This document shows, in pieces, positions 2,798 through 43,797 of a DNA stretch of 64,000 nt. Position 1 is the stretch's first letter; each line of letters opens with the position of its first letter. This DNA is from a virus (lineage: Duplodnaviria > Caudoviricetes): the IMG/VR virus record IMGVR_UViG_3300036821_000136, positions 32,001-96,000 of that record. One strand, 5' to 3'. The notes beneath the pieces were generated by a model. The model was not told the origin of the DNA and did no database searches. It was given only the letters and a program-made list of their open reading frames with translations. The position numbers and the translations under genes were made by a program.

Positions 2798-4285
2798 ATG
2801 GCAGACCAGAAAACCCGACAGGGCCGCGCCGCGGCCGCCGCCGACGAGCGGCGCCGCACCGCCGAGGCCGGGCTGCCGCCCGGCGCCGGCAACGGTGACG
2901 GGCCCGGCGGCGAGGTCGCCGTCCGCGACCCGCTGCGCCAGCTCATGGACAGCTTCCAGCCCGAGGTCGCCCGCCAGCTGCCCAGGCTGATCGACCCCGA
3001 CGCGTTCATGCGGGTCGCGCTGACCGGCATGCGGTCCTCCAAGCAGGCCGCCGCGCTGGCCAGGTGCACCCGGCCGTCGCTGTTCGCCGCGCTGCTGGAG
3101 TCGGCGCGGCTGGGCCTGATGCCGTTCACCGACGAGGCCGCCATCGTCCCGTTCGGCGACCAGGCGACGTTCATCCCGATGTACCAGGGCTACGTGCAGC
3201 TGTTCTACCGCACCGGGCAGGTCGCCCGGGTCACTGCCCAGCTCATCCGCAAGGGCGACGCCTGGGAGCTGGCCTACGGCGACGCCGGCGGGTTCTACCA
3301 CAAGCCCGCCCTCGTCGACGCCGACGGGAACCCGGTCAAGCGCGGCGACCCGATCCTGGCCTACTGCTACGTCACGATGCGGGACGGGTCGCGGACCGAG
3401 GTCACCACCGTCGACCGGTGGGAGGCCGAGGACACCATGCGCGAGCACTCCCGGTCCTGGCAGAACGCCGAGAAGATATGGCGGGAGTCCAACGGCAAGC
3501 GCGGCCGCGACTCGGCCTGGCACACCAACTTCGCCGACATGTGGCTCAAGACCGGGGTCCGCCGGCACGCCAAGGTCGCGCCCAAGAGCCCGGAGCTGGT
3601 GCAGCTGCTCATGCTGGAGGACCGCGACGACTCCCGCCGGTGGCGCGACGCGCCGCTGCCGCCGGTGCCGCCGATGCCGGACGTGGTCGAGGGCGTCGAC
3701 TGGACCCGCGACGTCGCGGGCGCGGTGACCGGCGAGGTGCTGCGCGACGAGCGCGACGAGCGCGACGAGCCCGGCGGGCAGCCCGGCCGCGAGCGGGTCA
3801 CGATCCGCGAGCACGCCGGCGACGGCACCGTGCCGGCCGGCGCGGCGGCGGCGGCGGGCGCGGCCGGCACCCCGGCCGGCAACGGCGGCGGCCAGGACGC
3901 GCCGCTGATCACCGCGCAGACCACCGGGCGGCTGAACTGGAAGTTCAGCCAGTGCGGATGGTCCGGCGACGAGTACCGCGACCGCCGCATCGCGGTCGCC
4001 GGCCTGCTGGGCAACCTGCAGGGCCGGCCGCTGCCGATCACGGCGATCGCCCAGCTGACCGACGACCAGGGGAAGGCCGCCATCGCCTTCATCGACGAGA
4101 AGCTGCTGCCCAGGTACGAGGGCAAGGACCAGCGCGCCGCGGCGCTGCAGGGCCTCTACGACCGGCTGACCGAGGCGCTGGCCGCCGAGCACGGCGCGGC
4201 CGCCGCGGCGGACATCACCCGGCCCGGCGACGGCAACGGCGACGGCCCGGGCGACGACGTGCCGCCGCCGGACGGGCCCGGCTAA
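2798..4285 (+). CDS. recT: RecT-family single-strand annealing protein with long C-terminal extension
   Basis: LARCTRPSLFAALLESARLGL, AAIVPF, YQGYVQLFYRTG and W..NFADMWLKT..RR..K.APKS. Confidence 0.9.
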   Translation: MADQKTRQGRAAAAADERRRTAEAGLPPGAGNGDGPGGEVAVRDPLRQLMDSFQPEVARQLPRLIDPDAFMRVALTGMRSSKQAAALARCTRPSLFAALLESARLGLMPFTDEAAIVPFGDQATFIPMYQGYVQLFYRTGQVARVTAQLIRKGDAWELAYGDAGGFYHKPALVDADGNPVKRGDPILAYCYVTMRDGSRTEVTTVDRWEAEDTMREHSRSWQNAEKIWRESNGKRGRDSAWHTNFADMWLKTGVRRHAKVAPKSPELVQLLMLEDRDDSRRWRDAPLPPVPPMPDVVEGVDWTRDVAGAVTGEVLRDERDERDEPGGQPGRERVTIREHAGDGTVPAGAAAAAGAAGTPAGNGGGQDAPLITAQTTGRLNWKFSQCGWSGDEYRDRRIAVAGLLGNLQGRPLPITAIAQLTDDQGKAAIAFIDEKLLPRYEGKDQRAAALQGLYDRLTEALAAEHGAAAAADITRPGDGNGDGPGDDVPPPDGPG

Positions 4286-20134: not shown

Positions 20135-20953
20135 TCAGCCCGCCGCCTGGGCGGCCGCCCGGTCCCGGCCGATCGCCCACGCCACCGCGACCACCTCGGC
20201 CGCGGTCCGCCACAGCGGCGGGAGCTGCCCGACGTTGAGCCACCGGACCCGCCCGGTGAACCGCCACCCGGCGGCGGCCAGCGCCGCGTCGAGGGTGCCG
20301 GCGTGCTCGGCGCCCCACACCGCCACCGCGTCCCGGCCGGGGTCGATCGCGTCGACCGCCAGCTGCGACCGCTGCTCTAGCAGCACCGCGTACAGGTCCG
20401 GCGACAGCCGGCCGGTCAGCCGGGCCATCCACCGGGAGTGGCGCCGGGCCAGCCGCCGGTAGGTCACCGGCGCCACCGCCGCCATGTAGCGGTCCTCGTG
20501 GCGGCCGAGCTGCTCCGACGCCTGGGCGGCCCGGGCGCCGGCCGCCGCGATGGGCTCGGTGCCGGCGATCCTGATCAGCTCCAGGTCGGTGAGGTCGGTG
20601 ACCGTCCACGTGCTGCCGCCGATCGCCTCGCCCTGGAACACCCAGCCCAGCCCGGCCGCCATCGCGGCGGGCCGGTCGTGGTAGAGCCCGCGCAGCACCT
20701 CGCGGGCGGCGCGCTCGGCATCGGTCGCGGCCGCCCACTGCCCGTCGGGCGCGGCGCAGATCCCCTCCAGGTAGACGGCGGCGCCGCGGTCTTCCAGCTC
20801 GGCGATCCGGCGGCGCATCAGGGCAAAGTAGCCGCGGCTGCCGATGTGGTTGTTCAGCACCAGGACCAGCGTCGCCTTCGTGTCGGCGTGCCGGTACCAG
20901 CGCACCGGCGTCGCCAGCGTGCGGGCGCGCAGCCGCATCACGCCGCTAGGCAC
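20135..20953 (-). CDS. TraB/PrgY/GumN (Tiki-like) superfamily hydrolase-like protein
   Basis: NHIG..GYF, VYLEG, EQRS and VWGAEH follow the H..E..R..GxxH pattern of this metal-dependent family. Confidence 0.55.
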   Translation of the reverse strand: MPSGVMRLRARTLATPVRWYRHADTKATLVLVLNNHIGSRGYFALMRRRIAELEDRGAAVYLEGICAAPDGQWAAATDAERAAREVLRGLYHDRPAAMAAGLGWVFQGEAIGGSTWTVTDLTDLELIRIAGTEPIAAAGARAAQASEQLGRHEDRYMAAVAPVTYRRLARRHSRWMARLTGRLSPDLYAVLLEQRSQLAVDAIDPGRDAVAVWGAEHAGTLDAALAAAGWRFTGRVRWLNVGQLPPLWRTAAEVVAVAWAIGRDRAAAQAAG

Positions 20954-22178
20954 CGGCCGCCTCCCCCGCCCGGGCCCGCCGCCACGCCAGCGCCAGCACC
21001 GCCCCGGCCGCGCTGCCGCCGACGGCGAACCACGCGATGACCAGCGCCGGGCTGACCCGCTGCGCGATCGCGCCCGCCGCCAGCACCGCGACCGCCTGGG
21101 CCAGGCTCATCGCCGCGCCGACGACCCCGTTCGCCTTGCCCCGGTGCTCGTCCGGGACCGCCATGATCATCGCCCCGGCCGCGGCCGGGATGAACCCGGT
21201 GAACAGGCCCGACACCGCCAGGATCACGACCGCGCCGGCCAGCACCGGCGGGCCCGCGAACGCGGTCAGCACCACGACCCCGGCCAGGGCGGTCACGGCG
21301 GCCAGCCGCATCCGCAGGTCCTCGCCGACGAACCGGGTGTAGACCATCGGCCCGATCGTCGCGCCGACCGCGCCCGCCGCTAGCAGCACCCCGACCGTGC
21401 CCGCGCCGCCGCCCAGCTGGCGGCTGAGCGGCACCGACAGTCCCTCCGGGACGCCGTAGAAGCCGGTCAGGCAGAGCAGGCCCATCGCGGCGACGGCGAC
21501 CGGGCGGGTGAACACGACCCGGACCCCGGCGAGCACCTGCGGCCTGGCCGGGCCGCCGCCGCCGGGCGCCGGGCGGGCCCGCAGGCCGAACCGGATCAGG
21601 GCGGCCGAGGCCAGGAACGAGGCGGCGTCGACGGCGATCGCGGCGCGCACCCCGAGCGCGGCGACGACCGCGCCGCCGGCGGCGAACCCGGCGAGCTGCG
21701 CCACCTGGTAGGTCGCCAGGGTGATGCCGTTGCCGACCTGGAACCGCCGCTCGCCGAGCACCGCGACGTTGGTCGCCATCCGCGCCGACAGGAACGGCTC
21801 GATCGCCAGCCCGACCGTGAACAGCAGCGCGATCAGCGCGGCGAGCGGCAGGCCGGGGATCAGCATGACCGCGACCAGCGCGGCGCACGCCAGGTCGGCG
21901 ACGATCATGACCTGCCGCCTCGGCCAGTGGTCGGCGGTCCAGCCGAGCAGCAGCCCGCCGGCGAACATCGCCAGCGTGGTCAGCGCGAACGTCACCGCGG
22001 CGAGCAGCGGCGAGCCGGTGCGGCCGTAGACCAGCACCGCGACCGCGACGCGGGCGAACTGGTCGCCGCCGAACGAGACGAGCTGCGCGAGCCACACCGC
22101 CCGCCACTCGGAGACCGCGAACACCTCGCGGAACGTGACCGCGCCGGCCGCCTGCTGCTCGGCGGTGCCGGCGGTCAC
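20946..22178 (-). CDS. MFS transporter (drug:H+ antiporter/MFS_3-like)
   Basis: WLAQLVSFGGDQF, GWTADHWPRRQVMIVADL, DAASFLASA and VPDEHRGKANG; ~12 TM segments. Confidence 0.9.
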   Translation of the reverse strand: MTAGTAEQQAAGAVTFREVFAVSEWRAVWLAQLVSFGGDQFARVAVAVLVYGRTGSPLLAAVTFALTTLAMFAGGLLLGWTADHWPRRQVMIVADLACAALVAVMLIPGLPLAALIALLFTVGLAIEPFLSARMATNVAVLGERRFQVGNGITLATYQVAQLAGFAAGGAVVAALGVRAAIAVDAASFLASAALIRFGLRARPAPGGGGPARPQVLAGVRVVFTRPVAVAAMGLLCLTGFYGVPEGLSVPLSRQLGGGAGTVGVLLAAGAVGATIGPMVYTRFVGEDLRMRLAAVTALAGVVVLTAFAGPPVLAGAVVILAVSGLFTGFIPAAAGAMIMAVPDEHRGKANGVVGAAMSLAQAVAVLAAGAIAQRVSPALVIAWFAVGGSAAGAVLALAWRRARAGEAAGA

Positions 22179-23341
22179 GGCTGCCGCCCCACGTAGGACA
22201 TCCAGGCCACGGCAACGTTGTTGAACATGGTCAGCGGCGCCCGCCCGAACGGCAGGTCCCGGTCCCAGCGCAGCGACGACCACCGGTCGGTCGCGGCGTA
22301 GACCACGGTGCGGAGCTCCTGCAGGGCGAGCGGCTCGCCCAGGCAGCGGTGCGGCCCGGACGCGAACGCCGGGTGCTGCTGGCCCAGGCCGGGGCGGCGC
22401 GGGTCGAGCAGGCCGGGGTCGGGGAACCTGGCCGGGTCGCGGCCGGCTGACCACAGCGACCCGGTGACCATCTGGCCGGCCGGGATCTCCACGTCGCCGA
22501 ACGTGACGGGCCGGGTGGTCACCGCCCCGATCGTCGGGAACGGCGGAGCGAGCCGCAGGCACTCGGCGATCGCGCCGTCGCGCAGCCCGGGGTCGGCGCG
22601 CAGCTCGTCCCAGCCGCCCCACTCGGCCAGCAGCAGCAGGGTGCTGGCGATCGCCGCGTGCGTCGTGTGGATCCCGGCGGCGACCAGCCCCCAGAGATAC
22701 CCGATGATGTCCTCGTCGGACAGGTCGGCCCCGTCGACCTGGTAGCCGGCCGCCTGGGCGGCGATCAGCTCGTCGACGAGGCCGCCGGCCGGGCGGCGGC
22801 GGCGCTCGGCGAGCAGGTCGGCGAAGAACGCCGCCTTGTCGGTCTGCACGATGGTCTGGTGGACCGCGGCCGACCCGGCCGCGAACTCGGCCAGCCACGC
22901 GCCGAACTGCTTGTTCGCCGCCAGGTCGAGACCCATGATCTGGCAGATCACCGCCCCGGGCAGCGGCGCCGCCAGCTCGGCGACGACCTCGAACGGGCCG
23001 CCGTGCCGCTCGATGTCATCCATGAGCTGGTCGGCCAGGGCGCGGATCCCGGGCGCCAGGGCGGCCAGCGCGGTCCGGCTGAACGGGTCGCGGACCAGGC
23101 GCCGCAGGTCGTGGTGCCGCGGCCCGTCGGCGACCCACATCACGTGGTCGTTGGGCTCCCTCGAGCGGGGGTCGGCGAACCCCTGGGAGAAGCACACGGC
23201 GTCCCGGGCGAGCCGGTCGACGTCGTCGTAGCTGAACACCTGCCAGCTGCGGCGGTCCGGGTCGTAGAACGGCCTGGTGCCGGCGTCGAGGGGCAGCCCT
23301 GGCGGGCCGAGCAGTCGCTGATCGGGCAGTACGGGGGTCAT
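22175..23341 (-). CDS. Cytochrome P450
   Basis: DGPRHHDLRR, I-helix AAGIHTT, ECLR (ExxR), RDP..FPDP, heme motif FASGPHRCLG. Confidence 0.95.
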   Translation of the reverse strand: MTPVLPDQRLLGPPGLPLDAGTRPFYDPDRRSWQVFSYDDVDRLARDAVCFSQGFADPRSREPNDHVMWVADGPRHHDLRRLVRDPFSRTALAALAPGIRALADQLMDDIERHGGPFEVVAELAAPLPGAVICQIMGLDLAANKQFGAWLAEFAAGSAAVHQTIVQTDKAAFFADLLAERRRRPAGGLVDELIAAQAAGYQVDGADLSDEDIIGYLWGLVAAGIHTTHAAIASTLLLLAEWGGWDELRADPGLRDGAIAECLRLAPPFPTIGAVTTRPVTFGDVEIPAGQMVTGSLWSAGRDPARFPDPGLLDPRRPGLGQQHPAFASGPHRCLGEPLALQELRTVVYAATDRWSSLRWDRDLPFGRAPLTMFNNVAVAWMSYVGRQP

Positions 23342-29926: not shown

Positions 29927-32057
29927 ATGCCGCACCTGATCATGATCTTCCCGGTGCTGTGGGGCTGGGCCCTGGCGCACTGGTACCTCGGCGCCGCCGC
30001 CCTGGCCGCCGCCACCCTGACCGCGGTCATCGGCCGCAGGAAGGCCTGACCAATGGACCTGCCCGACAAGGACCTGCTGTTCATCCGCGTCGCCGTGTGC
30101 TGCAGCCGCCCCGGCTGCGGCCTGGCGACGCCCTGCCCGGCCTGCGCCGGCATCATGCGCGTGCCGCTGATCGCCGAGCGGTTCCGGCTGATCGCCGCCG
30201 CCGACGCCGAGCCGCCCGGCCCCGACCGGGACGCCCTGGCCGCCCGCATCACCGAGATCGAGCGCTGGCTCGACGCCCACCCCGAGGCCGCCGCCGATGA
30301 TGACACCTGCCCGTGGTGCGGCGGCCCGATGCCGTGCACCGGGCCCTGCGACTACTCGATGGGCGGAGACCAGTGATGGACGACCAGCAGCGCACCGGCG
30401 TCACCGTCACCCAGTACCAGGGGCCGACGATGCGTTTCGAGACCGCCCAGGCGTACGGCGCCTGGCTGCTGTCCGGCGCCGGGGACCCCGACTTCGCCGT
30501 TGACCTGCACGAGAGCTGGGACGACCCCGGCTACGCGGCCGACGGCGCCCGGATCATCGACGCGATGGCCGACGCCGCCGGCGAGCCCGCCCCCGAGCCC
30601 TACCGGGCCAGCGTGACGCTCCCGGCCGGCGGCGCCCACCCGTTCGAGTGGACGATCACCTGGCCCGCCGGCTGGACCCCGCCCGGCTACCAGGTCACCG
30701 CCTGCCCGGCCTGCGGGCAGGTCACCGAGCCCTACAGCCTGACCGACCCGCGCCTCGTCCACCGCGACACCGGCTGGACCATGTGCGACCCCGACACCTG
30801 GAAGGCGTAGCCCGCCGGGCTACGCGGCAACCGCGAAGGAGAGAGACCGATGACCAAGACCGACACCGGCACGTGGGCCGCCGAGCCGCTGGTCTACGGC
30901 GGCACCGCGGCGGGCAAGACCGTCGCCCGCGTGGCCGTCTGGTATGACGAGCAGCGCAACCAGCTGGTATTCAGCCCCGACAAAGGCCGCCACTACGTGA
31001 TCGGCGGCGTCTACGACACCGAGGTCCGCCGCGACGCCGGCGGCCAGGTCAAGAGCCGCCGCGGCACGCCCCGGTTCACCGGGCGCCACCCCGACACCGA
31101 ATGGGTCGCCGTGCTCGAGGCCGACGACTACGCCGCCCAGCAGAAGATCGCCGCCGGCCAGCTGGAGCGCCGCGCCCGCCGCGACCCGGAGATCGCCAAG
31201 GTGCTCCAGCCGGTCGAGGCGTTCGCCGCCGGCCTCAACTACGCCCAGCGCGACGCGCTGATCGCCCTGATCACCCGCACGGTCTACCGTGCCAGGAACA
31301 CCGGAAAGAGCTGACCACCATGCCCATGTTCAGGAAGACTGAGCGCACCCCCGAGGAGGCGGCGCTGCGCGCCGCCCAGTTCGCCGCGATCGGCGCCAGC
31401 ATCGACCTGCCCGGCCTGTACCGCGGCGCCGGTCCCGGCAAGATCGCCAGGCGGCTCGCCGAGCTGGCCGCCGGCGGCGGCACCGCCGAGGTCACCGGGC
31501 AGACGTCGCGCACGTCGATCGGCGGCGCGCTCGGCGGCGAGCTGATCGCCGGGCCGGTCGGCGCCGTCATCGGCGGGTCCCGGCACCGCACCCAGGTCGT
31601 CGTCCGCGACGGCGCCGGCGGCGTCAAGGTGACCGAGGTCCGCGACGCGCAGAAGGCGTACGCCTTCACCGAGGCGTTCGCCGCCTACGCCGCCATCGTC
31701 GCTGGCGGGACCGACGTCCCGTGACCTGCGGTTACCCCCTGCCCGCGTTGCCGATATATAGTGTGGTCAGTTGCCGGTGTACCGGTGACCACTGAAGGAG
31801 AGAGACACACCATGACCGTTCCGCCGCCGGGCATCACGTGCCCGCCCGACCCCGGCCGCCAGATCAGCGCCGCGCGCCGCGCCCAGGGGTTCCGCGACCA
31901 GGACCACCTCGACCGCTGGTTCGCCTACTCCGACCACACCAGGGAGTGCCCGGCCTGCGGCCTGCCCGGCGACGGCTACGACGGCCCCGACGGCTGGCAG
32001 CCCACCGTCACCGCCTGCCCGGAGTCGATCCGGCTGCTGGCGCTGGTGTCACCGTGA
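29927..32057 (+). CDS. Run of hypothetical genes (29927-30049, 30053-30376, 30376-30810, 30850-31314, 31320-31724, 31812-32057)
   Basis: RBSs, tight packing and GC3 bias. Confidence 0.55.
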
Positions 32058-35069: not shown

Positions 35070-35138
35070 GGCGGGGCCTTTCCGGTAGTCGTCCTCCCGG
35101 CGATCGTACGCCGTCGCGTGACACGACCGCGACAGTGT

Positions 35139-35152
35139 GAGACGATCGTCTC
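35139..35152. promoter_or_regulatory. Perfect 14-bp palindrome, candidate GntR operator
   Basis: GAGACGATCGTCTC in the divergent intergenic region. Confidence 0.5.
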
Positions 35153-35844: not shown

Positions 35845-36254
35845 CCCGCACCGCGCGCCGGCCGCTGGCCCGGGTGATCGGCGACGTCGCTGACCGTCAC
35901 CGCGGCGCGGTCCGCCTCGTCGTGCTCGCCGTCGTGGCCGCCGGCGGGGCCGCCTGGCACTGGCACACCTGGCTGCCGCTCGTCTTCCTCGCCGGGGCGC
36001 TGACCGCCGAGGGCGGCCGGCTGGCCGCCGAGGCGTGGGGCTGGCAGCGGGCCGGCGGCAAGGCCGAGCTGCGGCGGCTGCGCCGCCACGGCGGGCCCGC
36101 CACCATGCGCGAGCTGCACCGGCACCTGTCGCTGCGCGCCGCCCGCCGCGCCGCCCGGGCCGCGCGCCCGTCCCTGGCCGCCCTGCGGCTCGCGGCGATC
36201 CCCGCGCACCAGGCGGGCATCGCGCTGGGCACCGCGAGGAGGTCAGCGCGATGA
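35841..36254 (+). CDS. Membrane protein (possibly the detached anchor of the coupling protein)
   Basis: Two TMs; coupled on both sides. Confidence 0.55.
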   Translation: MTRTARRPLARVIGDVADRHRGAVRLVVLAVVAAGGAAWHWHTWLPLVFLAGALTAEGGRLAAEAWGWQRAGGKAELRRLRRHGGPATMRELHRHLSLRAARRAARAARPSLAALRLAAIPAHQAGIALGTARRSAR

Positions 36255-37738
36255 GGCGTCCCTGGCAGTACGTCCGCCCCAGCGTCGACGTGTTCGGGTC
36301 GTTCCGCAGCGCGTATGCGGTGATCGGCCCGCCGAACAGCGGCAAGACCGCGTTCCTGGCCCGCGCCGCGCTGACCGCGCCCGGGGCGCTGCTCACGTTC
36401 TCGACCAACTACGAGCTGGCCCGCGACACCGCCGCCGCCCGGATCCGCGAGGACCGCGGCCTGGGCCCGGTGTGGTGGGTCAACCCCGGCCGCGCCGGCG
36501 GGTTCCCGTCCAACTGCGGCTACAGCCCGCTGGCCGGCTGCGAGTCGCCTGGCATGGCGATGGAGGCCGCCGGGGCGCTGATGGCCGCCGCGCCGCACGA
36601 CAAGAAGGACGCGCACTGGGACGCCCTGTCCAAGAGGTTCCTGCAGTACCTGATGCACGCCGCGGCGCTGCACCCCGACCGGCCCGACATCCGGATCGTG
36701 CGGCAGTGGGCCGCCGACCCGGCCAACCCCGACGAGCCGATGGAGGTGCTGGACCGGTGGGGCACCCAGGACTGGGCGCAGCAGCTCGACGACCTGGCCG
36801 CGCAGTGCCGCACCGACATGGACGGGAAGACCGCCACGGCGGTCGCCGGCGGCGTCCTCGCCGCCCTGGCCTGGCTCGATGACCCGGGGCTGGCGGTGCT
36901 GGCCTGCCCGCCGCCCGGATATGAGTTCGACGCCCGCGCGTTCCTGCGCGAGCGGGGCACCGTCTACGCGATCGGCGCCGACTCCGAGCACAACCCGCAG
37001 ACCCCGTTCCTGTCGTGCTTCTGCACGTACGTGTGGAACGAGGCGAACCGGGCCGCGCAGGACCCCCGTGAGGCGTGCGCGGCCCGGGGCAAGCTCGACC
37101 CGCCGCTGATGATCGTCGGCGACGAGCCGGGCAACTCCTGCCTGGTGCCCTACGACAAGTGGGCGTCGACGGCCGGCGGCCGCGGCGTCTGCCTGATCAC
37201 CGGCTGGCAGTCCGACGCGCAGATGCCGATGCGGTGGGGCGACCACGCCGCCCGGGTGATGCTCGACGCGTTCGGCGGGCTGGTCGTGTTCGGCGGGGTC
37301 AAGGGCGACCTGGCCGCGCTGGCGTCCTCGTGGGCCGCCGACAAGCCGACCTGGCACAAGGGCGAGCGCGGCGCGAAGGTGCTGGCCAGCGCGCCCACCT
37401 TCAGCCCGGCGGTGCTCGGCACCCTGAAGGACTACCGGGCGATGGTCAAGTACGGCAGGCGGCGCGCGTTCCTGGCCGACATGCCCGACGTCCGCCGCCA
37501 CCCGTGGTACCGCGAGGTCACCGCGGCCGACTTCCCGTCCGACCCGGTGTGGGAACCCGCCGCGCTGGCCGCCCGCACCAACCGCCGCCGCGTCGCCGCC
37601 GCCCGCGGCGGCCTGACCGCCGTCACCGACCACGGCCGCACCGCCGTCACCGACCAAGGAGCACCGTCATGGCCACCACAACTAAGCAGCAGGCGGGCCC
37701 TCCCGGGCGGACACCGTCCCGGCGGGCGCGCCGGCTAG
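36251..37738 (+). CDS. VirD4/TraG-like conjugative coupling ATPase
   Basis: Walker A GPPNSGKT, YSPLAGC, HAAAL, Walker B IVGDEPGN, and GRGVCLITGWQSDAQM..RWG...LVVFGG. Confidence 0.85.
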   Translation: MRRPWQYVRPSVDVFGSFRSAYAVIGPPNSGKTAFLARAALTAPGALLTFSTNYELARDTAAARIREDRGLGPVWWVNPGRAGGFPSNCGYSPLAGCESPGMAMEAAGALMAAAPHDKKDAHWDALSKRFLQYLMHAAALHPDRPDIRIVRQWAADPANPDEPMEVLDRWGTQDWAQQLDDLAAQCRTDMDGKTATAVAGGVLAALAWLDDPGLAVLACPPPGYEFDARAFLRERGTVYAIGADSEHNPQTPFLSCFCTYVWNEANRAAQDPREACAARGKLDPPLMIVGDEPGNSCLVPYDKWASTAGGRGVCLITGWQSDAQMPMRWGDHAARVMLDAFGGLVVFGGVKGDLAALASSWAADKPTWHKGERGAKVLASAPTFSPAVLGTLKDYRAMVKYGRRRAFLADMPDVRRHPWYREVTAADFPSDPVWEPAALAARTNRRRVAAARGGLTAVTDHGRTAVTDQGAPSWPPQLSSRRALPGGHRPGGRAG

Positions 37739-38499
37739 CGAAGCTGATCGGGCACCGCAAGGTCCGCCGCGACAAGCAGCTGCTGCACCGCCTGATGCAG
37801 GAGCTGCAGCGGGAGCTCAAGCGGGCCCGCAGCCCGTGGTCGCGGCTGCGCGCCAAGGCCCGCGAGGCGATGGACCGCCGCCGCAACCCCTACACCCGCG
37901 CCGACACCGGCCGGTCCTACCGCACCAGCGAGGCCGCCATGCGCGACCAGGGCGGCGGCGGCCGCCAGGCCAGGCAGCCGCAGGGCACGGGCCGCCAGGA
38001 CCGGCAGCAGGCAGCTGCGGGCCGCCACCGCGCCCCCGGGGGACCCCGTGAGCACGTCGGCGGCAGTACCCTGCGGACCCGCCGGAACCAGGCCCGCCGC
38101 CGCCGCCTGGCGGGCCGCTCGGGCTGGGCACGGCGCGGCTGGGACCGCGGGTGGCACGGCGCCGCCCAGCGCCAGGCCAACGTCCGCGCCTGGGGCGCCC
38201 GCCGCCGCGCCGCCTACCAGCGCGCCGCGGAGCCCGGGATCCGCCGCGCCGAGGTCCGCGCCGACGCCCGCGCCAACGGGATGGACAGGCGCCGCGCCGC
38301 CGCGCACGCCAACCGGGTGCACCCCGGCGCGGTCCGCCGCCGGTGGCGGTCCTCACGCGGCCCGGCCCGCGCGACCGCCGCCCGCGGCCAGGCCGTGCGC
38401 GCCGCCTCGTACGCCGGCCGCCGCGCCCCCCGGATGCGCCGGGTCCGCCGTCCCCGCGTGGCGCGGATGCCCCGCCTGATCGGCCGCGGCGGCCGGTAA
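37669..38499 (+). CDS. Extremely Arg-rich basic protein
   Basis: AAGGAG RBS before ATG 37669; fills the gap between coupling ATPase and HNH; GC3-rich codons. Confidence 0.55.
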   Translation: MATTTKQQAGPPGRTPSRRARRLAKLIGHRKVRRDKQLLHRLMQELQRELKRARSPWSRLRAKAREAMDRRRNPYTRADTGRSYRTSEAAMRDQGGGGRQARQPQGTGRQDRQQAAAGRHRAPGGPREHVGGSTLRTRRNQARRRRLAGRSGWARRGWDRGWHGAAQRQANVRAWGARRRAAYQRAAEPGIRRAEVRADARANGMDRRRAAAHANRVHPGAVRRRWRSSRGPARATAARGQAVRAASYAGRRAPRMRRVRRPRVARMPRLIGRGGR

Positions 38500-38541
38500 C
38501 ACACCGTATTTGTGCAGGTCAGCGACCCGAAGGAGAGACCG

Positions 38542-39270
38542 ATGACCACCACCCGAGAAGCCGCCCGCGAGGAGGCATGGAGCCGCGACGACGCGCTGTC
38601 CGCGTTCCTGGCCGTCACCGCCCGCCCTGACCCCGACGACGGCACCAGCAGCCTGATCGTCCTCGACGACGCGCAGCTGGCCCGGCTGCGCCCGGTCGTC
38701 GAGCGGGCCCGCCGCGTCGGCTACTGCCTGCAGTGCGACCCCGGCTTCCCCGAGGTGTGGGCGGCCGTCGGCGACGGCTGGCCGCACCTGGCCAGCTCCC
38801 ACGGCAAGGTCCGGTCCCGGCGCCGCACGCTGACCCTGCGGCCGATGAACCGGCCGCCCGGCGACGGCGTCGTCAAGTACGAGCAGACCGACCTCTGCTT
38901 CGGCGGCCGCCAGGTCACCAAGCCGGTCCACCAGATCCTGCTGCTGGCCTTCGAGGGCACCCGCCCGTCCGACAAGCACGAGTCCTGCCACGGCGACGAC
39001 GTGGCCAACCACAACCACTGGACCAACCTGCGCTACGGCCTCGACAACGGCCTGGACAAGGCGCGGCAGGCCGCGTTCCTCAGCCCGGGCGCGGCCGAGC
39101 GCCGGTCGGCCGCCGCCCGCCGCGCGCAGCGGGCCGGCCGGCAGCGCCTCGACGACCGCCGCGCCGCCGACCGCGCAACACACCGTGACGATGACACGCA
39201 GCGTAGCGGCCTGGCGAAGGTCACCGGCTGGCTTGCCCGTCACGGAATGTGGCGACGTGGGGACCGGTGA
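38542..39270 (+). CDS. NUMOD4-like/HNH endonuclease
   Basis: EVW..V......SSHGKVRS, VHQILLLAFEG.RP...SCHGDD...NHWTNLRYG. Confidence 0.75.
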   Translation: MTTTREAAREEAWSRDDALSAFLAVTARPDPDDGTSSLIVLDDAQLARLRPVVERARRVGYCLQCDPGFPEVWAAVGDGWPHLASSHGKVRSRRRTLTLRPMNRPPGDGVVKYEQTDLCFGGRQVTKPVHQILLLAFEGTRPSDKHESCHGDDVANHNHWTNLRYGLDNGLDKARQAAFLSPGAAERRSAAARRAQRAGRQRLDDRRAADRATHRDDDTQRSGLAKVTGWLARHGMWRRGDR

Positions 39271-39458
39271 CAGGCGGTGAGCGGAACCGATGACAGACCG
39301 ATGACACGTTTCCGCAGGTCAACGGCCTGCACGCTGCGTAACCGCGGAACTCGGAAGCCGGCACGCAAATTCGCCGCCTTCGGCGGCGCCTTCCGAGTTA
39401 GCCGACCGGTGACAGCGCGTGACGAACACGGAGCGTAGCCGCTCGCCCGGCGGTGACA
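39189..39458 (+). repeat. clt-like cluster of co-oriented 8-bp repeats CGRTGACA
   Basis: Copies start at 39189, 39265, 39288, 39299, 39407 and 39451; another lies at 41141. Confidence 0.6.
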
Positions 39459-39488
39459 GCGAGTGACGACGATGGGAGGCCACCCAGC

Positions 39489-41495
39489 GTGACGATGACC
39501 GGGACGACCCCGCTGCCCGTGACCGGCTTCCACCCGACGCACGGCTGGATCGCCGTCGCGGTCGCCGCGCTGTGCGTCGGGCTGGTCGTGAACGTGGTGG
39601 CGGGGCGGGTGCGGCGCGCCAACGGCAAGGAGGGCGGCGCGACGGCGGTCGGGCGGCTGCTGGCCGGGATCGACCTGCACCACGGCCGCGATCACTGGAC
39701 GAACGCGGGGTGGCTGACGCGGCCGGGAGAGGTCACCCTCGTCGGCGCCGGGACCAAGCGGGGGCGGGCGTCGTGGTGGCAGCACCAGAACTACCTGTTC
39801 CGGTCGGTGGTCCGCTCAGGGTGGCTGCCCGTGGCCGCTGCGTGGTTCCTGGCCGGGGCGGAGGCGGCCTGTGCGGCCGCGCTGGCGCTCGGGCTGTTCG
39901 CGTTCTACGTCAGGACCCGCACCCGCCCTGGGTGGCTGTCCGCGGCGTGGATCCCGCGGGTCCGCGGCGAGCACGACGCCGGCCGGGTCGGGCCGCTGGC
40001 TGAGGCGCTGGCCACCGCGACCAACGTCAGCAGCCGGGCGGTCGCCCGCGGGCTGCACTGGCACCCCGATTACGCCCTGTCACAGCCGGGCGATGAGGTG
40101 CTGAGCTGGGATATCCCGCCGGCGTTCAAGGCGGCGGGCGGCGAGCGGCGCACCGTCGAGGACCTGATCGAGTCGCGGGTCGGGTTCGGGCTGCAGGCGT
40201 CGTGGCGGACGTCGCAGGTGCCGCCGGTGCTGGTGATGAGCCGGGCCCGGTCGCTGCCGCCGATCGTGTTCCTGGCCGACGTGCTGGACCGGGTCGACGC
40301 GCTGCCGGCGTCCAAGACCGCGATCGGCCTGGATGACCTCGACCGGCTGGTCTGCTGGGACTGGGGGTGCGAGACCCCGCACGGCGTGATGAACGCCGGG
40401 TCGCGGCACGGCAAGAGCGAGACCAACAAGTGCCTGATCTGCCAGATCCTGCGCAAGGGCGGGTCGGTCACCGCGATCGACGTCAAGGAGATCAGTTTCC
40501 AGGGCCTCGAGGGACTGCCCGGGTTCACCCTGGTCAACGACCCCGGCGACATCCCGGCGATGTGGGAGGCGATCGCCGACTTCGCCGGCGAGCTGAACGT
40601 GCGGCGCGCCGAACGGGCGGCCGGGACGGCAACCAGCTGGCCGGTCAAGCTGCTGATCATCGAGGAGGCCAACCAGTTCGGCGAGATGACCGACGACTGC
40701 TGGGAGGACCTGCCCTGCGTCGACGACATGGAGCCCGAGGAGCGCGAGCTGCTGCGCGGCACCGAGCTGTGGAAGACCAAGGGCGCCAAGAAGACCCCGC
40801 GCGTGTGGCGGCACGTCAAGGCGGTCGCCTGGCAGGGCGCCGCGTTCAACATGCACGTGCTCGTCGACGGCCAGGACATGAAGGATTCGGTCGTCAAGGG
40901 GCTGCGCAACAGCCTCGGGATGCGGCTGCTCGGCGGGTACCTGCCGCAGCAGTGGAAGTTCCTCGTCGGCACCACCCCGGTCCCCGCCGCGCCGGCGGTC
41001 AAGGGCCGGTTCTGCCTGGTGATCGGCAACCAGCAGACGTGGACGCAGGCGATCCTCGCCGACACCGACCCCGACGTCAGCTCGCGGATCTGGCGCGACT
41101 TCGCGCTCAACGGCCGGCCCGACCCCGGCCCCGGCGGCGCCGGTGACAGCCACCGACGACAATTCACCGACGACAGCGTCCCGCCGCTGGTCAGCGCTAC
41201 AAACGGCGACGGCCCGTCACCGGTGACCGGCGACACGGCGATCCCCATGACGCTGCTGTCCATCGTGCGGATCTTCCTGGCCCCCGACGCCGGCGACGAC
41301 GACCAGAAGAAGCTGGCGGCCGCGCTCAAGCAGGACCGGCAGCGGCACGACCGCGGCGCGCTGCCGCCCGGGCTGATCTTCCCCGGCCAGGTCGGCACCG
41401 ACGGGCAGGCCGAGCTGTTCCTGCCCCACCAGGTGATCAAGTTCAACACCGCGCGGCGCGGCCAGCCCGCCGCCAGAAACGGAGGACCGTCATGA
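39489..41495 (+). CDS. FtsK/SpoIIIE-family (TraB-like) DNA translocase
   Basis: N-terminal TMs, TPHGVMNAGSRHGKS (Walker A variant), IDVK, LLIIEEAN (Walker B), MHVLVDGQ, LRNSLGMRLLG and KGR. Confidence 0.8.
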   Translation: MTMTGTTPLPVTGFHPTHGWIAVAVAALCVGLVVNVVAGRVRRANGKEGGATAVGRLLAGIDLHHGRDHWTNAGWLTRPGEVTLVGAGTKRGRASWWQHQNYLFRSVVRSGWLPVAAAWFLAGAEAACAAALALGLFAFYVRTRTRPGWLSAAWIPRVRGEHDAGRVGPLAEALATATNVSSRAVARGLHWHPDYALSQPGDEVLSWDIPPAFKAAGGERRTVEDLIESRVGFGLQASWRTSQVPPVLVMSRARSLPPIVFLADVLDRVDALPASKTAIGLDDLDRLVCWDWGCETPHGVMNAGSRHGKSETNKCLICQILRKGGSVTAIDVKEISFQGLEGLPGFTLVNDPGDIPAMWEAIADFAGELNVRRAERAAGTATSWPVKLLIIEEANQFGEMTDDCWEDLPCVDDMEPEERELLRGTELWKTKGAKKTPRVWRHVKAVAWQGAAFNMHVLVDGQDMKDSVVKGLRNSLGMRLLGGYLPQQWKFLVGTTPVPAAPAVKGRFCLVIGNQQTWTQAILADTDPDVSSRIWRDFALNGRPDPGPGGAGDSHRRQFTDDSVPPLVSATNGDGPSPVTGDTAIPMTLLSIVRIFLAPDAGDDDQKKLAAALKQDRQRHDRGALPPGLIFPGQVGTDGQAELFLPHQVIKFNTARRGQPAARNGGPS

Positions 41496-42973
41496 CGCAG
41501 CTGACCGAGCGGCTGTCCCTGTTCTGGGCGCGGCACCGCCCGTCGCGGGTGCCGGGCCGGTGGCGGCACGGCCCGGCCGCCACCCAGGTCCACAACTGGC
41601 GCAGCGCCCGCACCATCGCCCGCGGCCGGGTGCCCTACTGGCAGCGGGCCACCGCCGCCGCCGGGTCGCGGACCCCGGTCTACCGCAGCCGGATCAACCG
41701 GGCGACCGGCCGCCCGCACCGCGACGACGCGATGATGCGCCGCAGCGGCGACCAGGCGCTCGCCCGGACCCGGGACCGGCACACGCCCCGGCCGCGCCGG
41801 GTGGGCGGCCGGGGCGGACGGTGAGATGATTACGGGCCATGACCAGATTGCTACTGCTGGTAGCCGGCTACGGCGGCGGCATCCTGCTGACCTGGCGCGG
41901 CGACTGGCGGCACGGCCTGGCGATCTTCGCGCTCACCGCCGCCCTGCACTTCCTGTCCGTGCTGGCCTACCCCTGGCACCGCTGCTGGGCATGCCGCGGC
42001 CGCGGCGTGTTCTGGCTCGGCCGCAACCACGGCGACTGCGTGGTGTGCGGCAACCGCCGCCGCTACCCCCGCACCGGCGCCCGGATCCTGACCCCCGGCC
42101 GCGCCCGCAGAATGACCCAGCGAAGGAGAGGACGATGACCCACCCCGCGCACTACGAAATCATCGGCGGCCCCGCGCCGTACCCCGACTCGGCGGCCGCG
42201 CTCAGGGCGGCGGCTACCCGCCGTGACCAGGTCACGGCCAGGCAGGCGGCGGACATGCGCCGGCTATCCGCGGACACGCCCGGTAACGACCCCGACCCCG
42301 CCCGGCGGCAGCGGATGGCCCGCGCCTTCCTGCAGGCGGTCGGCGAAAGCCTCGACGAGGCGTGGCCCGAGCTGATCGCCCGCGCCTGCATATACGCGGG
42401 CATGGGCGCGCCGGTCCCGGGCGCCGACGAGTACGTCGACATGCTCGCCGCGGCGCTCGGCGTCCCGGCCGACGAGGCGCCGTTCGAGCTCGACCAGCTG
42501 ATCCCCGGCGTGCCGGACACGGCCAGGCACGAGGTGACGTCATGAGGGTCCGGATCGGCACCAGCGGGCTGCTGCTGCTGATCGCCCTCGCCGTGATCAT
42601 CCTGATCGCCGGGCTGCGCTGGCTCGGCTCCAACGCCGCCGCGATCCGCGCCGGGGTCGGCACCGGCGTGCTGGTCCTCGTCGTCGCCGGGGTGCTCGGC
42701 CTGGCCGTGCACCTGCTGCTGCAGGCGCACCGCGCCGAGCGGCTGCCCTGGCAGCGGCCCGTCCCGCCGCCCGTCCCGCCGGCCACGATGACCGCCGAGG
42801 TGCTGCCCGCCGCCGCGGCCGAGCTGACCGCCCCGGCGCCGGTCGCCGCGATCGCGCCGGCCCCGGCCGGGGTCACTGTCGTCGTGTCGACCGCGGAGGC
42901 GGCCGAGGCGTTCGCCCGCGGCCTGCACGTCCCGCCGCCGGCTGGCGGGCAGGGCAGCGACGGGAGCCCGTGA
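41492..42973 (+). CDS. Four small genes after the translocase (41492-41824 Arg-rich, 41839-42138 TM+Zn finger, 42135-42545, 42542-42973 membrane)
   Basis: ATGA coupling; TM segments; CxxC..CxxC. Confidence 0.55.
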
Positions 42974-43126
42974 CGACGGCGCGGACCCGGCCGGCGGCGA
43001 CAGCCACTGCCACATCGCCGGCCGGGTCCAGCTGGGACGTCACCCCGGCGGCCTTCCGTGGGGCCGGGGGGCACCACCGGACGCTACCGGGCGCCGCGCC
43101 GCCGCGCCGCCCGAACCGGGGAACTG

Positions 43127-43203
43127 ATGGCGTTTTTGTGACGGCCGCCCCGGCACCTGCCCCGGGCACTGATCCTGATGGCGCTTTGACGCAAAAACGC
43201 CAT
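43127..43203. repeat. 12-bp perfect inverted repeat at the start of the recombinase gene
   Basis: ATGGCGTTTTTG (43127-43138) / CAAAAACGCCAT (43192-43203), with a third partial arm at 43178. Confidence 0.65.
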
Positions 43204-43797
43204 AGGAACGCGCACGCGGGCAGCGAGCGGCCCGCCGAGCCGCTGACCCCCGCCGAGGCCGCCGCGCTGCTCGCCGCCGCGTCCCGCGCCTCCTGGAGCG
43301 GGATCCGCGACCGCGCCATGATCACCGTGCTGTACCGGTCGGGGCTGCGGATCAGCGAGCTGCTCGGCCTGCGGCTGGCCGACCTCGACACCGCGGCGCG
43401 GACGCTGCGGCTTCGGCACACCAAATCCGGCCGGCCGCAGATGCGCGGCTACCACCCCGGCGCCGACGACGCCCTGGAGCTGTGGCTGCAGCTGCGCCGG
43501 CCGATGGGTCCCGGGCCGCTGTTCTGCACCCGGGCGGGCGGCCCGGTCTGGCCGCAGCAGGTCCGCGCGACGCTGGCCCGCCTCGCCGGCCGCGCCGGGA
43601 TCGCCAAGGCGGTCCGGCCGCACGGGCTGCGGCACACCCTGGCCGTCGAGCTGCTGCGCGCCGGGGAGGACATCGCCGTGATCTCCAAGATCCTGGGGCA
43701 CTCGTCGATCGCCACCACGGCGCGCTACCTTGATCACCTGACCAACAGCGCCGCGCTCACCAGGCTCGCCGCGGCCGACCTGCCGCCCCTGGAGTGA
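43186..43797 (+). CDS. Short tyrosine recombinase (catalytic domain only)
   Basis: RDRAM..VLYRSGLRISE, TKSG, HGLRHT, LGHSSIATTARY. Start uncertain (ORF open from 42970). Confidence 0.88.
   Translation: MTQKRHRNAHAGSERPAEPLTPAEAAALLAAASRASWSGIRDRAMITVLYRSGLRISELLGLRLADLDTAARTLRLRHTKSGRPQMRGYHPGADDALELWLQLRRPMGPGPLFCTRAGGPVWPQQVRATLARLAGRAGIAKAVRPHGLRHTLAVELLRAGEDIAVISKILGHSSIATTARYLDHLTNSAALTRLAAADLPPLE

Follow-up and report, generated by a model that had tools for sequence, protein, structure and literature searches.

A conserved repeat array and nested hairpin upstream of a putative DNA translocase gene in a tailed phage: a candidate clt-like site

Immediately upstream of the gene for a putative membrane-anchored DNA translocase, a 64,000-nucleotide stretch of viral DNA (the window; positions 32,001 to 96,000 of the IMG/VR virus record IMGVR_UViG_3300036821_000136) carries a dense array of short repeats arranged around a nested hairpin. 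The repeats and the hairpin alike hold up as non-random features that are under selection. By analogy with the clt loci of Streptomyces plasmids, we propose that the segment 39185-39500 is a clt-like loading site for the putative translocase, possibly also serving in autoregulation, a reading that in our judgement has about an even chance of being correct. Its main rival is an array of operators for a regulator, while an origin of transfer (oriT), a hairpin that acts only in RNA, and an origin of replication or partition site appear less likely. Coordinates are positions of the window and refer to the + strand unless stated otherwise. A preliminary description of the window had pointed to a clt-like locus at this place, on the strength of six co-oriented CGRTGACA 8-mers and the hairpin.

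A motif scan recovered CGRTGACA on the + strand at 39189, 39265, 39288, 39299, 39407 and 39451, with a seventh copy at 41141, exactly where the preliminary description had placed them. The window contained 12 matches versus 4.6 +/- 2.2 in shuffled sequences, and the whole 108,246-bp contig contained 13 (8 on + and 5 on -), six of them within 270 bp. Against a Poisson background of 3.2e-5 per base and strand, the probability of finding at least six copies on one strand in 270 bp is 5.6e-16, or 4e-13 when corrected for all windows. A harsher test used Markov-1 simulations of 371 bp and accepted at least six copies of any 8-mer with one two-fold degenerate position; it gave P = 0.002 with the composition of the region and P = 0.009 with that of the contig. 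The genome-wide count that had been suggested as a check thus revealed local enrichment. The strand skew, which was to be checked in the same way, was absent outside the cluster, where the word occurs at background level in the contig (2 on +, 5 on -). Since CGRTGACA is neither enriched nor strand-skewed there, a genome-wide polar guide word resembling the FtsK-orienting polar sequences (KOPS) or the SpoIIIE recognition sequences (SRS) was ruled out.

The array exceeds the six 8-mers first described and is built of two-part units about one helical turn apart (Table 1). A scan of 39150-39530 found the shorter core RTGAC 12 times on the + strand versus twice on the - strand, the cores spanning 39185-39523. 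They are paired at 10-11 bp in CCGGTGACAG-CGC-GTGACGA, which occurs twice, and in GATGACAGACCGATGACA, and at 6 bp in GTGACGATGAC, whose two copies lie at 39185 and 39489, the latter covering the start codon of the translocase gene. A longer unit, CGGTGACAGCGnGTGACGA, is present at 39407 and again at 39451, and a 17-nt companion box, ACACGsAGCGTAGCsGC, has two copies in the array and none elsewhere in the contig. For the extended pattern CC.RT.ACAG, five of the six sites in the 108-kb contig fall between 39264 and 41149. An exact-pattern scan of IMG/VR with the 19-mer unit returned no matches, and a sigma-70 promoter scan of the region found nothing.

The left part of the array reaches into the end of the open reading frame (ORF) of an HNH endonuclease, whose stop codon lies inside the word at 39264/39265. 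The G+C content at third codon positions (GC3) of this frame is 0.97 but only 0.70 over the last 30 codons (39181-39270), and the alignment with HNH homologues ends near residue 205-221. These signs indicate that the C-terminal tail is probably not protein but non-coding site DNA that is read through to the first stop. At the right edge, the translocase most likely starts at GTG 39489, with its own ribosome-binding site (RBS), rather than at 39453. We also observed a second, small inverted repeat (GCAGG ... CCTGC) at 39313-39338, upstream of the main hairpin, that recurs in the related loci L001 and L008.

The nested hairpin was found as the preliminary description had drawn it, with both its outer and its inner stem. 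A repeat search extended the outer arms to 13 nt at 92% complementarity, and the internal loop on the 5' side holds the sequence GCAAATT. A UNCG tetraloop was considered for the hairpin loop and ruled out, as the fold gives a loop of 3 nt. When the hairpins of 12 loci were aligned and 14 base pairs scored, 82.6% of the cells were paired, compared with 65% in column shuffles and 33-51% when the partners were slid. Changes on both sides, that is, compensatory changes, were seen in 11 of the 14 pairs, and five G-U cells were tolerated on the + strand. The excess of pairing together with the compensatory changes indicates that the pairing of the hairpin is selected. The outer stem in the relatives is of the type GGAAG.../...CTTCC, and the inner GC stem is kept as well. 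The structure may act in DNA, as a cruciform or in single-stranded form, or in RNA.

We examined 26 loci related to the translocase gene. The family is known almost only from soil metagenomes, and the closest relatives of the translocase are P0005, P0006 and P0007, with 90%, 74% and 58% identity. Two of the loci are on IMG/VR viral contigs, one of 78 kb with an estimated completeness of 84% (G001) and the other of 128 kb, complete and with terminal repeats (G002). Neither by protein nor by DNA search was a relative of the translocase found in 50,697 GenBank phage records. About 20 relatives with 43-52% identity share the same layout upstream of the gene, comprising a word of the type CCTGTNACAG, a hairpin and more words. 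In most of the loci that cover the upstream region, the order is a block like ACCTGTNACAG, a long imperfect hairpin and then units of the type GTnACAGnGnGTGAC up to the start codon, with GTnACAGnGnGTGAC directly 3' of the hairpin. The present block at 39264..39308 matches this 'box 1' ACCTGTNACAG. Several related loci lack the upstream region or have too little of it, and a few distant loci (L013, L016, L018) have no such word upstream.

Loci in which a gene other than HNH lies upstream still have the site next to the translocase gene: an HNH homologue precedes it in nine related loci, and others keep the site without an HNH gene. In 21 related loci, the upstream regions (8.2 kb in all) hold 49 copies of a degenerate form of the word and the remaining 124 kb hold 53, about half of which belong to a second cluster inside the gene. 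On the gene strand of 16 non-redundant upstream regions, GTGAC is enriched 5-fold and TGACA 9-fold. The perfect palindrome CTGTSACAG occurs twice in G001, both times at the translocase gene, and twice in G002, once at the gene. The word of the relatives is a palindrome, CTGT-N-ACAG, with the consensus CCTGTNACAG, and co-orientation is therefore a feature of the present genome only. That part of the preliminary description is correct for the six 8-mers here, all of which are on the + strand, but does not extend to the family.

The second cluster of words in the relatives lies between +1576 and +1820, counted from where the open frame begins, in DNA that codes for a disordered linker (residues 548-581 of the present protein) leading to the C-terminal domain of the translocase. 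By position, the site at 41141 (+1718), noted in the preliminary description as lying near the 3' region of the gene, and the palindrome GTCACCGGTGAC are the local counterparts of this cluster. The peptide P-V-T is the sole conserved peptide of the linker across the relatives, and its proline is encoded by CCT in 10 of 20 cases, compared with 10% of all prolines in these genes. This excess of CCT suggests selection on the DNA word beyond the peptide alone. Further upstream within the gene, CCTGTCACAG is the only perfect family-consensus palindrome in the 108-kb contig.

The gene downstream of the array is predicted to encode a membrane-anchored ATPase of the FtsK/TcpA superfamily; its database protein, P0004, is also 668 aa long. 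It has the Walker A motif AGSRHGKS and the Walker B motif LLIIEE, as well as two hydrophobic segments, at about residues 19-40 and 113-141 (19-residue windows, Kyte-Doolittle > 1.6), at both of which the structure model has long helices. Searches against Pfam, NCBIfam and PHROGs gave no family match. PF01580 (FtsK_SpoIIIE) was touched by two of 27 family members (E = 0.003), and the protein of the window had no match to it above threshold. An AlphaFold model built from 27 homologues had a mean predicted local distance difference test score (pLDDT) of 74, with values above 85 over most of the motor. The motor fold matched TcpA of plasmid pCW3 (Foldseek E 6e-13), the DNA-bound FtsK motor (E 9e-11) and the EccC/EssC ATPases, with probability 1.0. 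Homologues in Streptomyces plasmids, named 'pRL2-11' or DUF87, share about 25% identity, and their neighbourhood was uninformative.

The C-terminal domain is kept family-wide, with the invariant motifs DRxRxD, LPxGLxFP and FNxxRR, and was predicted with a pLDDT of 89 when modelled alone. In the protein of the window, His replaces the nearly invariant Ser of DRxRSD, and the word of this genome differs in its left half. The structural neighbours of the domain, although weak, nearly all fall into the class of DNA-binding winged helices of the MerR superfamily and excisionases: GlnR and TnrA on DNA, RacA, SoxR, BmrR, lambda Xis and Pukovnik Xis, the DNA-binding domains of small terminases and a plasmid centromere binder. 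The domain thus looks MerR/Xis-like rather than FtsK-gamma-like. A profile search with it retrieved no more than 27 proteins from 1.84 billion representatives, and those that were full-length matches were translocases of the same family. One homologue has an extra FtsK_gamma domain after the C-terminal domain, which fits a DNA-reading translocase. We treat the protein, on the basis of these models, as a probable DNA translocase of the FtsK superfamily with an unusual putative reader domain of its own. It is not a demonstrable member of the TraB family. For the translocase of the preliminary description, the models support an FtsK/TcpA-type motor fold, membrane anchors and a plausible C-terminal DNA-binding domain; a PF01580 match above threshold is absent, and the C-terminal domain looks to be of a structural type other than FtsK-gamma.

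Two side observations concern the translocase homologues. In several of them, including P0030, P0039 and P0041, some 330 aa with intein and LAGLIDADG Pfam domains are inserted at the Walker A loop; the insertion is also found at ~2540-3594 of L021 and ~6438-7447 of L023 and looks like an intein in the P-loop. Just downstream of the full gene in L009, near the contig end, positions 3305-3787 hold a second, partial copy of the translocase 3' end (motor end, linker, C-terminal domain; 27-48% identity), which could be a stand-alone reader-domain protein or the remnant of a duplication.

Table 1. Positions of the array, the hairpin, the translocase gene and its upstream neighbours in the 64-kb window.
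Feature	Position	Strand	Description
VirD4/TraG-like ATPase	36251..37738	+	TraG-D_C domain, E 3e-8; kept upstream in L003 and L023
HNH endonuclease gene	38512..39270	+	PHROG E 1e-13; directly upstream of the site
Leftmost repeat unit, GTGACGATGACA then CGCAGCGTAGCGGC	39185..39210	+	Includes the 39189 site; in the low-GC3 tail of the HNH ORF
Three CCGRTGACA(G/C) words (39264, 39287, 39298) and degenerate partner GGTGAGC	39264..39308	+	
Nested hairpin	39348..39399	+	Outer stem 39348-39357 / 39390-39399; inner GC stem 39372-39378 / 39382-39388; 3-nt loop
Two-part unit CCGGTGACAG-CGC-GTGACGA then ACACGGAGCGTAGCCGC	39406..39442	+	Block with the strongest conservation in relatives
Second copy of the two-part unit, GCGGTGACAGCGAGTGACGA	39450..39469	+	Ends 5 nt before the RBS
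RBS GGGAGG (39474-39479) and start GTG (39489)	39474..39500	+	Start inside GTGACGATGAC unit
Membrane-anchored FtsK/TcpA-superfamily ATPase (predicted)	39489..41495	+	668 aa
CCTGTCACAG	40076..40085	strand-neutral	Codes L-S-Q with a TCA codon; candidate site of uncertain functional status
Intragenic CCGGTGACAG	41140	+	The 41141 site of the preliminary description; in disordered-linker DNA
Intragenic palindrome GTCACCGGTGAC	41216-41227		Linker-coding DNA
C-terminal domain	41229..41492	+	Residues 581-668; helix-helix-beta-hairpin-helix; candidate word reader

If 39185-39500 is a loading site, it would be a cis-acting place of protein assembly for the product of the gene that follows it, with more copies of the word near 41140-41227. 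The gene would make a divergent, membrane-anchored ATPase with a hexameric motor of the FtsK/TcpA type, and its MerR/excisionase-like winged helix would read CCGRTGACA(G), the family consensus being CCTGTNACAG. Words paired at roughly one helical turn and placed to either side of the hairpin would allow several subunits to dock, and a ring with six reader domains could in this way load onto an array tightly linked to the gene that encodes it. Once loaded, it would pump the DNA in double-stranded form, in the manner of TraB at the clt loci of Streptomyces plasmids. The same binding could also limit expression of the pump, and autoregulation is a possibility because the rightmost units run up to the RBS and extend over the start codon; in plasmid systems, unregulated expression of the pump is toxic (PMC4447253).

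Published clt loci combine direct repeats of 7-9 bp with inverted repeats beside or inside a tra gene (PMC4447253, PMC3583192). In pWTY27, the clt consists of four TGACACC repeats and inverted repeats, reaches 16 bp into traA and is bound in vitro by TraA, a 688-aa protein with two transmembrane domains (PMC3583192). As outlined in the same source, the clt of pJV1 has nine 9-bp repeats and two inverted repeats, and that of pIJ101 an essential inverted repeat along with direct repeats (PMC3583192). The C terminus of TraB recognises direct 8-bp repeats (PMC4447253).

The phage locus resembles pWTY27 in having short direct and inverted repeats beside a translocase gene and reaching into it, in the size of the site (~175-320 bp) and in a protein of 668 versus 688 aa with two N-terminal membrane segments; the core is TGACACC there and (R)TGACA(C/G) here, which is a resemblance only. 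It differs in that the phage site is at the 5' end of the gene, with a second set in the linker-coding region, and in that TraA has a recognisable FtsK/SpoIIIE domain whereas none is recognised in the phage protein. The element itself is a tailed phage of 108 kb, and binding and transfer have been shown for pWTY27, the present site being known from sequence. With the TraB/clt systems of the pSVH1 type, found on plasmids and on actinomycete integrative and conjugative elements (AICEs), the phage locus shares, as far as those systems are summarised in PMC4447253 and PMC3583192, a membrane-associated FtsK-like hexameric motor with a C-terminal winged helix (predicted here) and a local cluster of 8-bp words as the loading site (proposed here), with no KOPS-like genome-wide pattern. 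In contrast to these systems, the C-terminal domain of the phage protein is MerR/Xis-like and family-specific, the word is kept across distant relatives, a conserved nested hairpin stands at the centre, and a VirD4-like ATPase and an HNH endonuclease accompany the gene. TcpA of pCW3 from Clostridium perfringens (PDB 6o1w), although the best structural match of the motor, is a weak match in sequence (E 0.04; identity ~14%) and works with a relaxase and an oriT in single-strand transfer; no Tcp partners were found in the phage.

Several points weigh against a loading site. The family word is a short palindrome, as is typical of dimeric regulators, and it is kept across relatives that are only 43-52% identical, unlike the plasmid-specific TraB recognition sequence (TRS) words. 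The position of the array, upstream of the gene and overlapping its RBS and start codon, fits an operator equally well. The translocase does not match the FtsK_SpoIIIE Pfam model, and the modelled C-terminal domain has only weak structural matches (Z 3.2-4.8; Foldseek E 0.2 or worse). The P-V-T of the linker could be a peptide motif, and this reading explains the hairpin no further than by its likeness to the inverted repeats of known clt loci. Finally, the parallel with Streptomyces clt loci would presuppose a host with mycelial growth. The clt-like interpretation of the preliminary description nevertheless finds support in a layout that is conserved upstream in ~20 relatives, stays with the translocase gene and matches the published clt ingredients; what has to be set against it is that the element is a tailed phage rather than a plasmid or AICE, and that a regulator operator array is a live rival.

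Such an array would be an operator of the Kor type, in which a dimeric repressor, either the GntR protein encoded ~4 kb upstream or another small helix-turn-helix protein, binds the CTGT-N-ACAG words and blocks a toxic translocase gene, the translocase itself not being the reader. The short palindromic form of the word speaks for this explanation, GT-N-AC being the general pattern of GntR-type operators, and the sites lie between the upstream genes and the RBS and start codon. It also has precedents, since traB and traR form Kil-Kor systems in Streptomyces plasmids (PMC4447253). In addition, one RTGACAC is located at 35118, in the ~120-bp divergent promoter region between the GntR gene and the operon, where ~0.01 would be expected. 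However, the same region has its own, different palindrome, GAGACGATCGTCTC, a perfect 14-bp sequence at 35139-35152 that lies 20 bp to the right of the RTGACAC and is a likely GntR operator. Moreover, at least 12 words over 340 bp and a second cluster ~1.7 kb into the gene go beyond the needs of a simple operator, and a GntR homologue was found in just one of the 26 related loci, many of which are short contigs. In that locus, L007, the nearby word is within a small ORF and not in a promoter, and a link between word and GntR there was rejected. Taking these points together, we consider an operator array unlikely, though a serious contender.

Transfer of a single strand from an oriT-like site is improbable. 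It would have the hairpin position a nick made by the HNH endonuclease or by a short tyrosine recombinase, with the repeats binding accessory proteins and the VirD4-like and FtsK/TcpA-like ATPases acting as coupling proteins. The HNH gene abuts the site, and its homologues precede the site in those nine related loci; two genes upstream stands a conserved VirD4-like ATPase. TcpA, to which the motor is closest in structure, serves the relaxase-dependent plasmid pCW3 as coupling protein, and the hairpin pairing is kept by compensatory changes. Nonetheless, the scans of the module proteins matched only the VirD4-like TraG-D_C, HNH, GntR, DUF2637 (weakly) and short tyrosine recombinase families, with no relaxase family, VirB4 or other component of a type IV secretion system (T4SS) among them. 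The site and hairpin persist in loci without an HNH gene, the relatives conserve neither the recombinase nor the other downstream genes, and HNH enzymes are not known to act as relaxases.

We give a similarly low probability to a hairpin that works purely in RNA, terminating, attenuating or stabilising transcripts between the HNH and translocase cistrons, with the words being separate from it or forming part of a structured 5' leader. The compensatory changes, the G-U cells tolerated on the + strand and the location between two co-oriented genes are all in keeping with such a role, but no T-run follows the stem on either strand and an intrinsic-terminator scan found nothing. Similarly, the whole 218-nt spacer folds no better than shuffled sequences (z = -0.56), and the search of Rfam returned no family, its sole row being a chance microRNA match (E = 1.8). 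An RNA function would leave both the word array and the intragenic cluster unexplained, and it does not conflict with a loading site. Last, it seems very unlikely that the site serves a plasmid-like prophage in replication, as an origin made of iterons and an inverted repeat, or in partition: iterons with long inverted repeats do define origins in Streptomyces plasmids such as pWTY27 (PMC3583192) and the phage encodes ParB-like and DnaB-like proteins, but those two genes are 40-50 kb away, no Rep gene adjoins the site, and the site travels with the translocase gene in all relatives.

The record is a single contig of 108,246 bp with 75.5% G+C, classed as a virus. PHROGs identified on it a large terminase, a portal, a head protease, a tape measure protein, a Dit-like protein, minor tail proteins and a tail fibre, as well as a RecT-like protein, a DnaB-like helicase and a ParB-like protein; the contig is a tailed phage and not a plasmid or AICE. 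The gene run that contains the site starts with the divergent GntR gene, a DUF2637-like membrane protein (a weak match, below the Pfam cut-off), a small membrane ORF and the VirD4/TraG-like ATPase, and continues with an ORF at 37735-38499, for which the ESM Atlas returned nothing, the HNH endonuclease, the site, the 668-aa ATPase, two small ORFs and the short tyrosine recombinase. A cos or pac site beside the HNH endonuclease was rejected as unlikely because the large terminase gene (contig 105017-106831), presumably with the packaging site, is ~35 kb away and the gene after the site encodes a predicted membrane ATPase instead of a terminase.

Further observations were made on the contig. The ParB-like protein has 610 aa and is encoded on the - strand at contig 20759-22591 (L028:759-2591; PHROG 6218, E 6e-37), and the short recombinase, at window positions 42970-43797, is XerC-like; the two fit a plasmid-like prophage lifestyle. 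At the contig start (G000:C1:1-70), the first ~62 bases form a near-perfect palindrome, with a related stretch near the other end, which may be a terminal hairpin or repeat structure or an artefact of assembly.

Tailed actinomycete phages with conjugation-type genes are already known, the Streptomyces plasmid-phage pZL12 (Zhong et al. 2010) being an example as it is cited in PMC4487206 and PMC3583192. On that account the phage described here shares with pZL12 its general theme, and its value is that of a variant and not of a principle. What is new is a translocase lineage that is invisible to Pfam, NCBIfam and PHROGs, a candidate reader domain of the MerR/Xis type, a location at the 5' end of the gene together with a nested hairpin that covaries, further words inside linker codons, and a VirD4-like ATPase and an HNH endonuclease as companions. 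A bolder and, in our view, rather improbable extension is that this family of large soil actinophages possesses a previously unrecognised transfer apparatus. It would have two motors, one of them the VirD4-like ATPase and the other a divergent pump of the TcpA/FtsK kind whose reader is of the MerR/Xis type, the HNH endonuclease acting at the conserved hairpin flanked by words, with words also in the linker codons of the pump, and would allow a virion-free spread of the phage genome from cell to cell that is neither classically TraB-type nor of the relaxase/T4SS type.

The array offers an example of a DNA signal within the codons of a disordered protein linker, and the 88-residue domain and the word of 9-10 bp would make a compact pair. 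Should the pump indeed load at the array, the lineage of this phage would possess a complete cassette of a motor plus its address label. Its DNA could then pass from cell to cell as naked double-stranded DNA, which would blur the line between phages and conjugative plasmids in soil actinomycetes.

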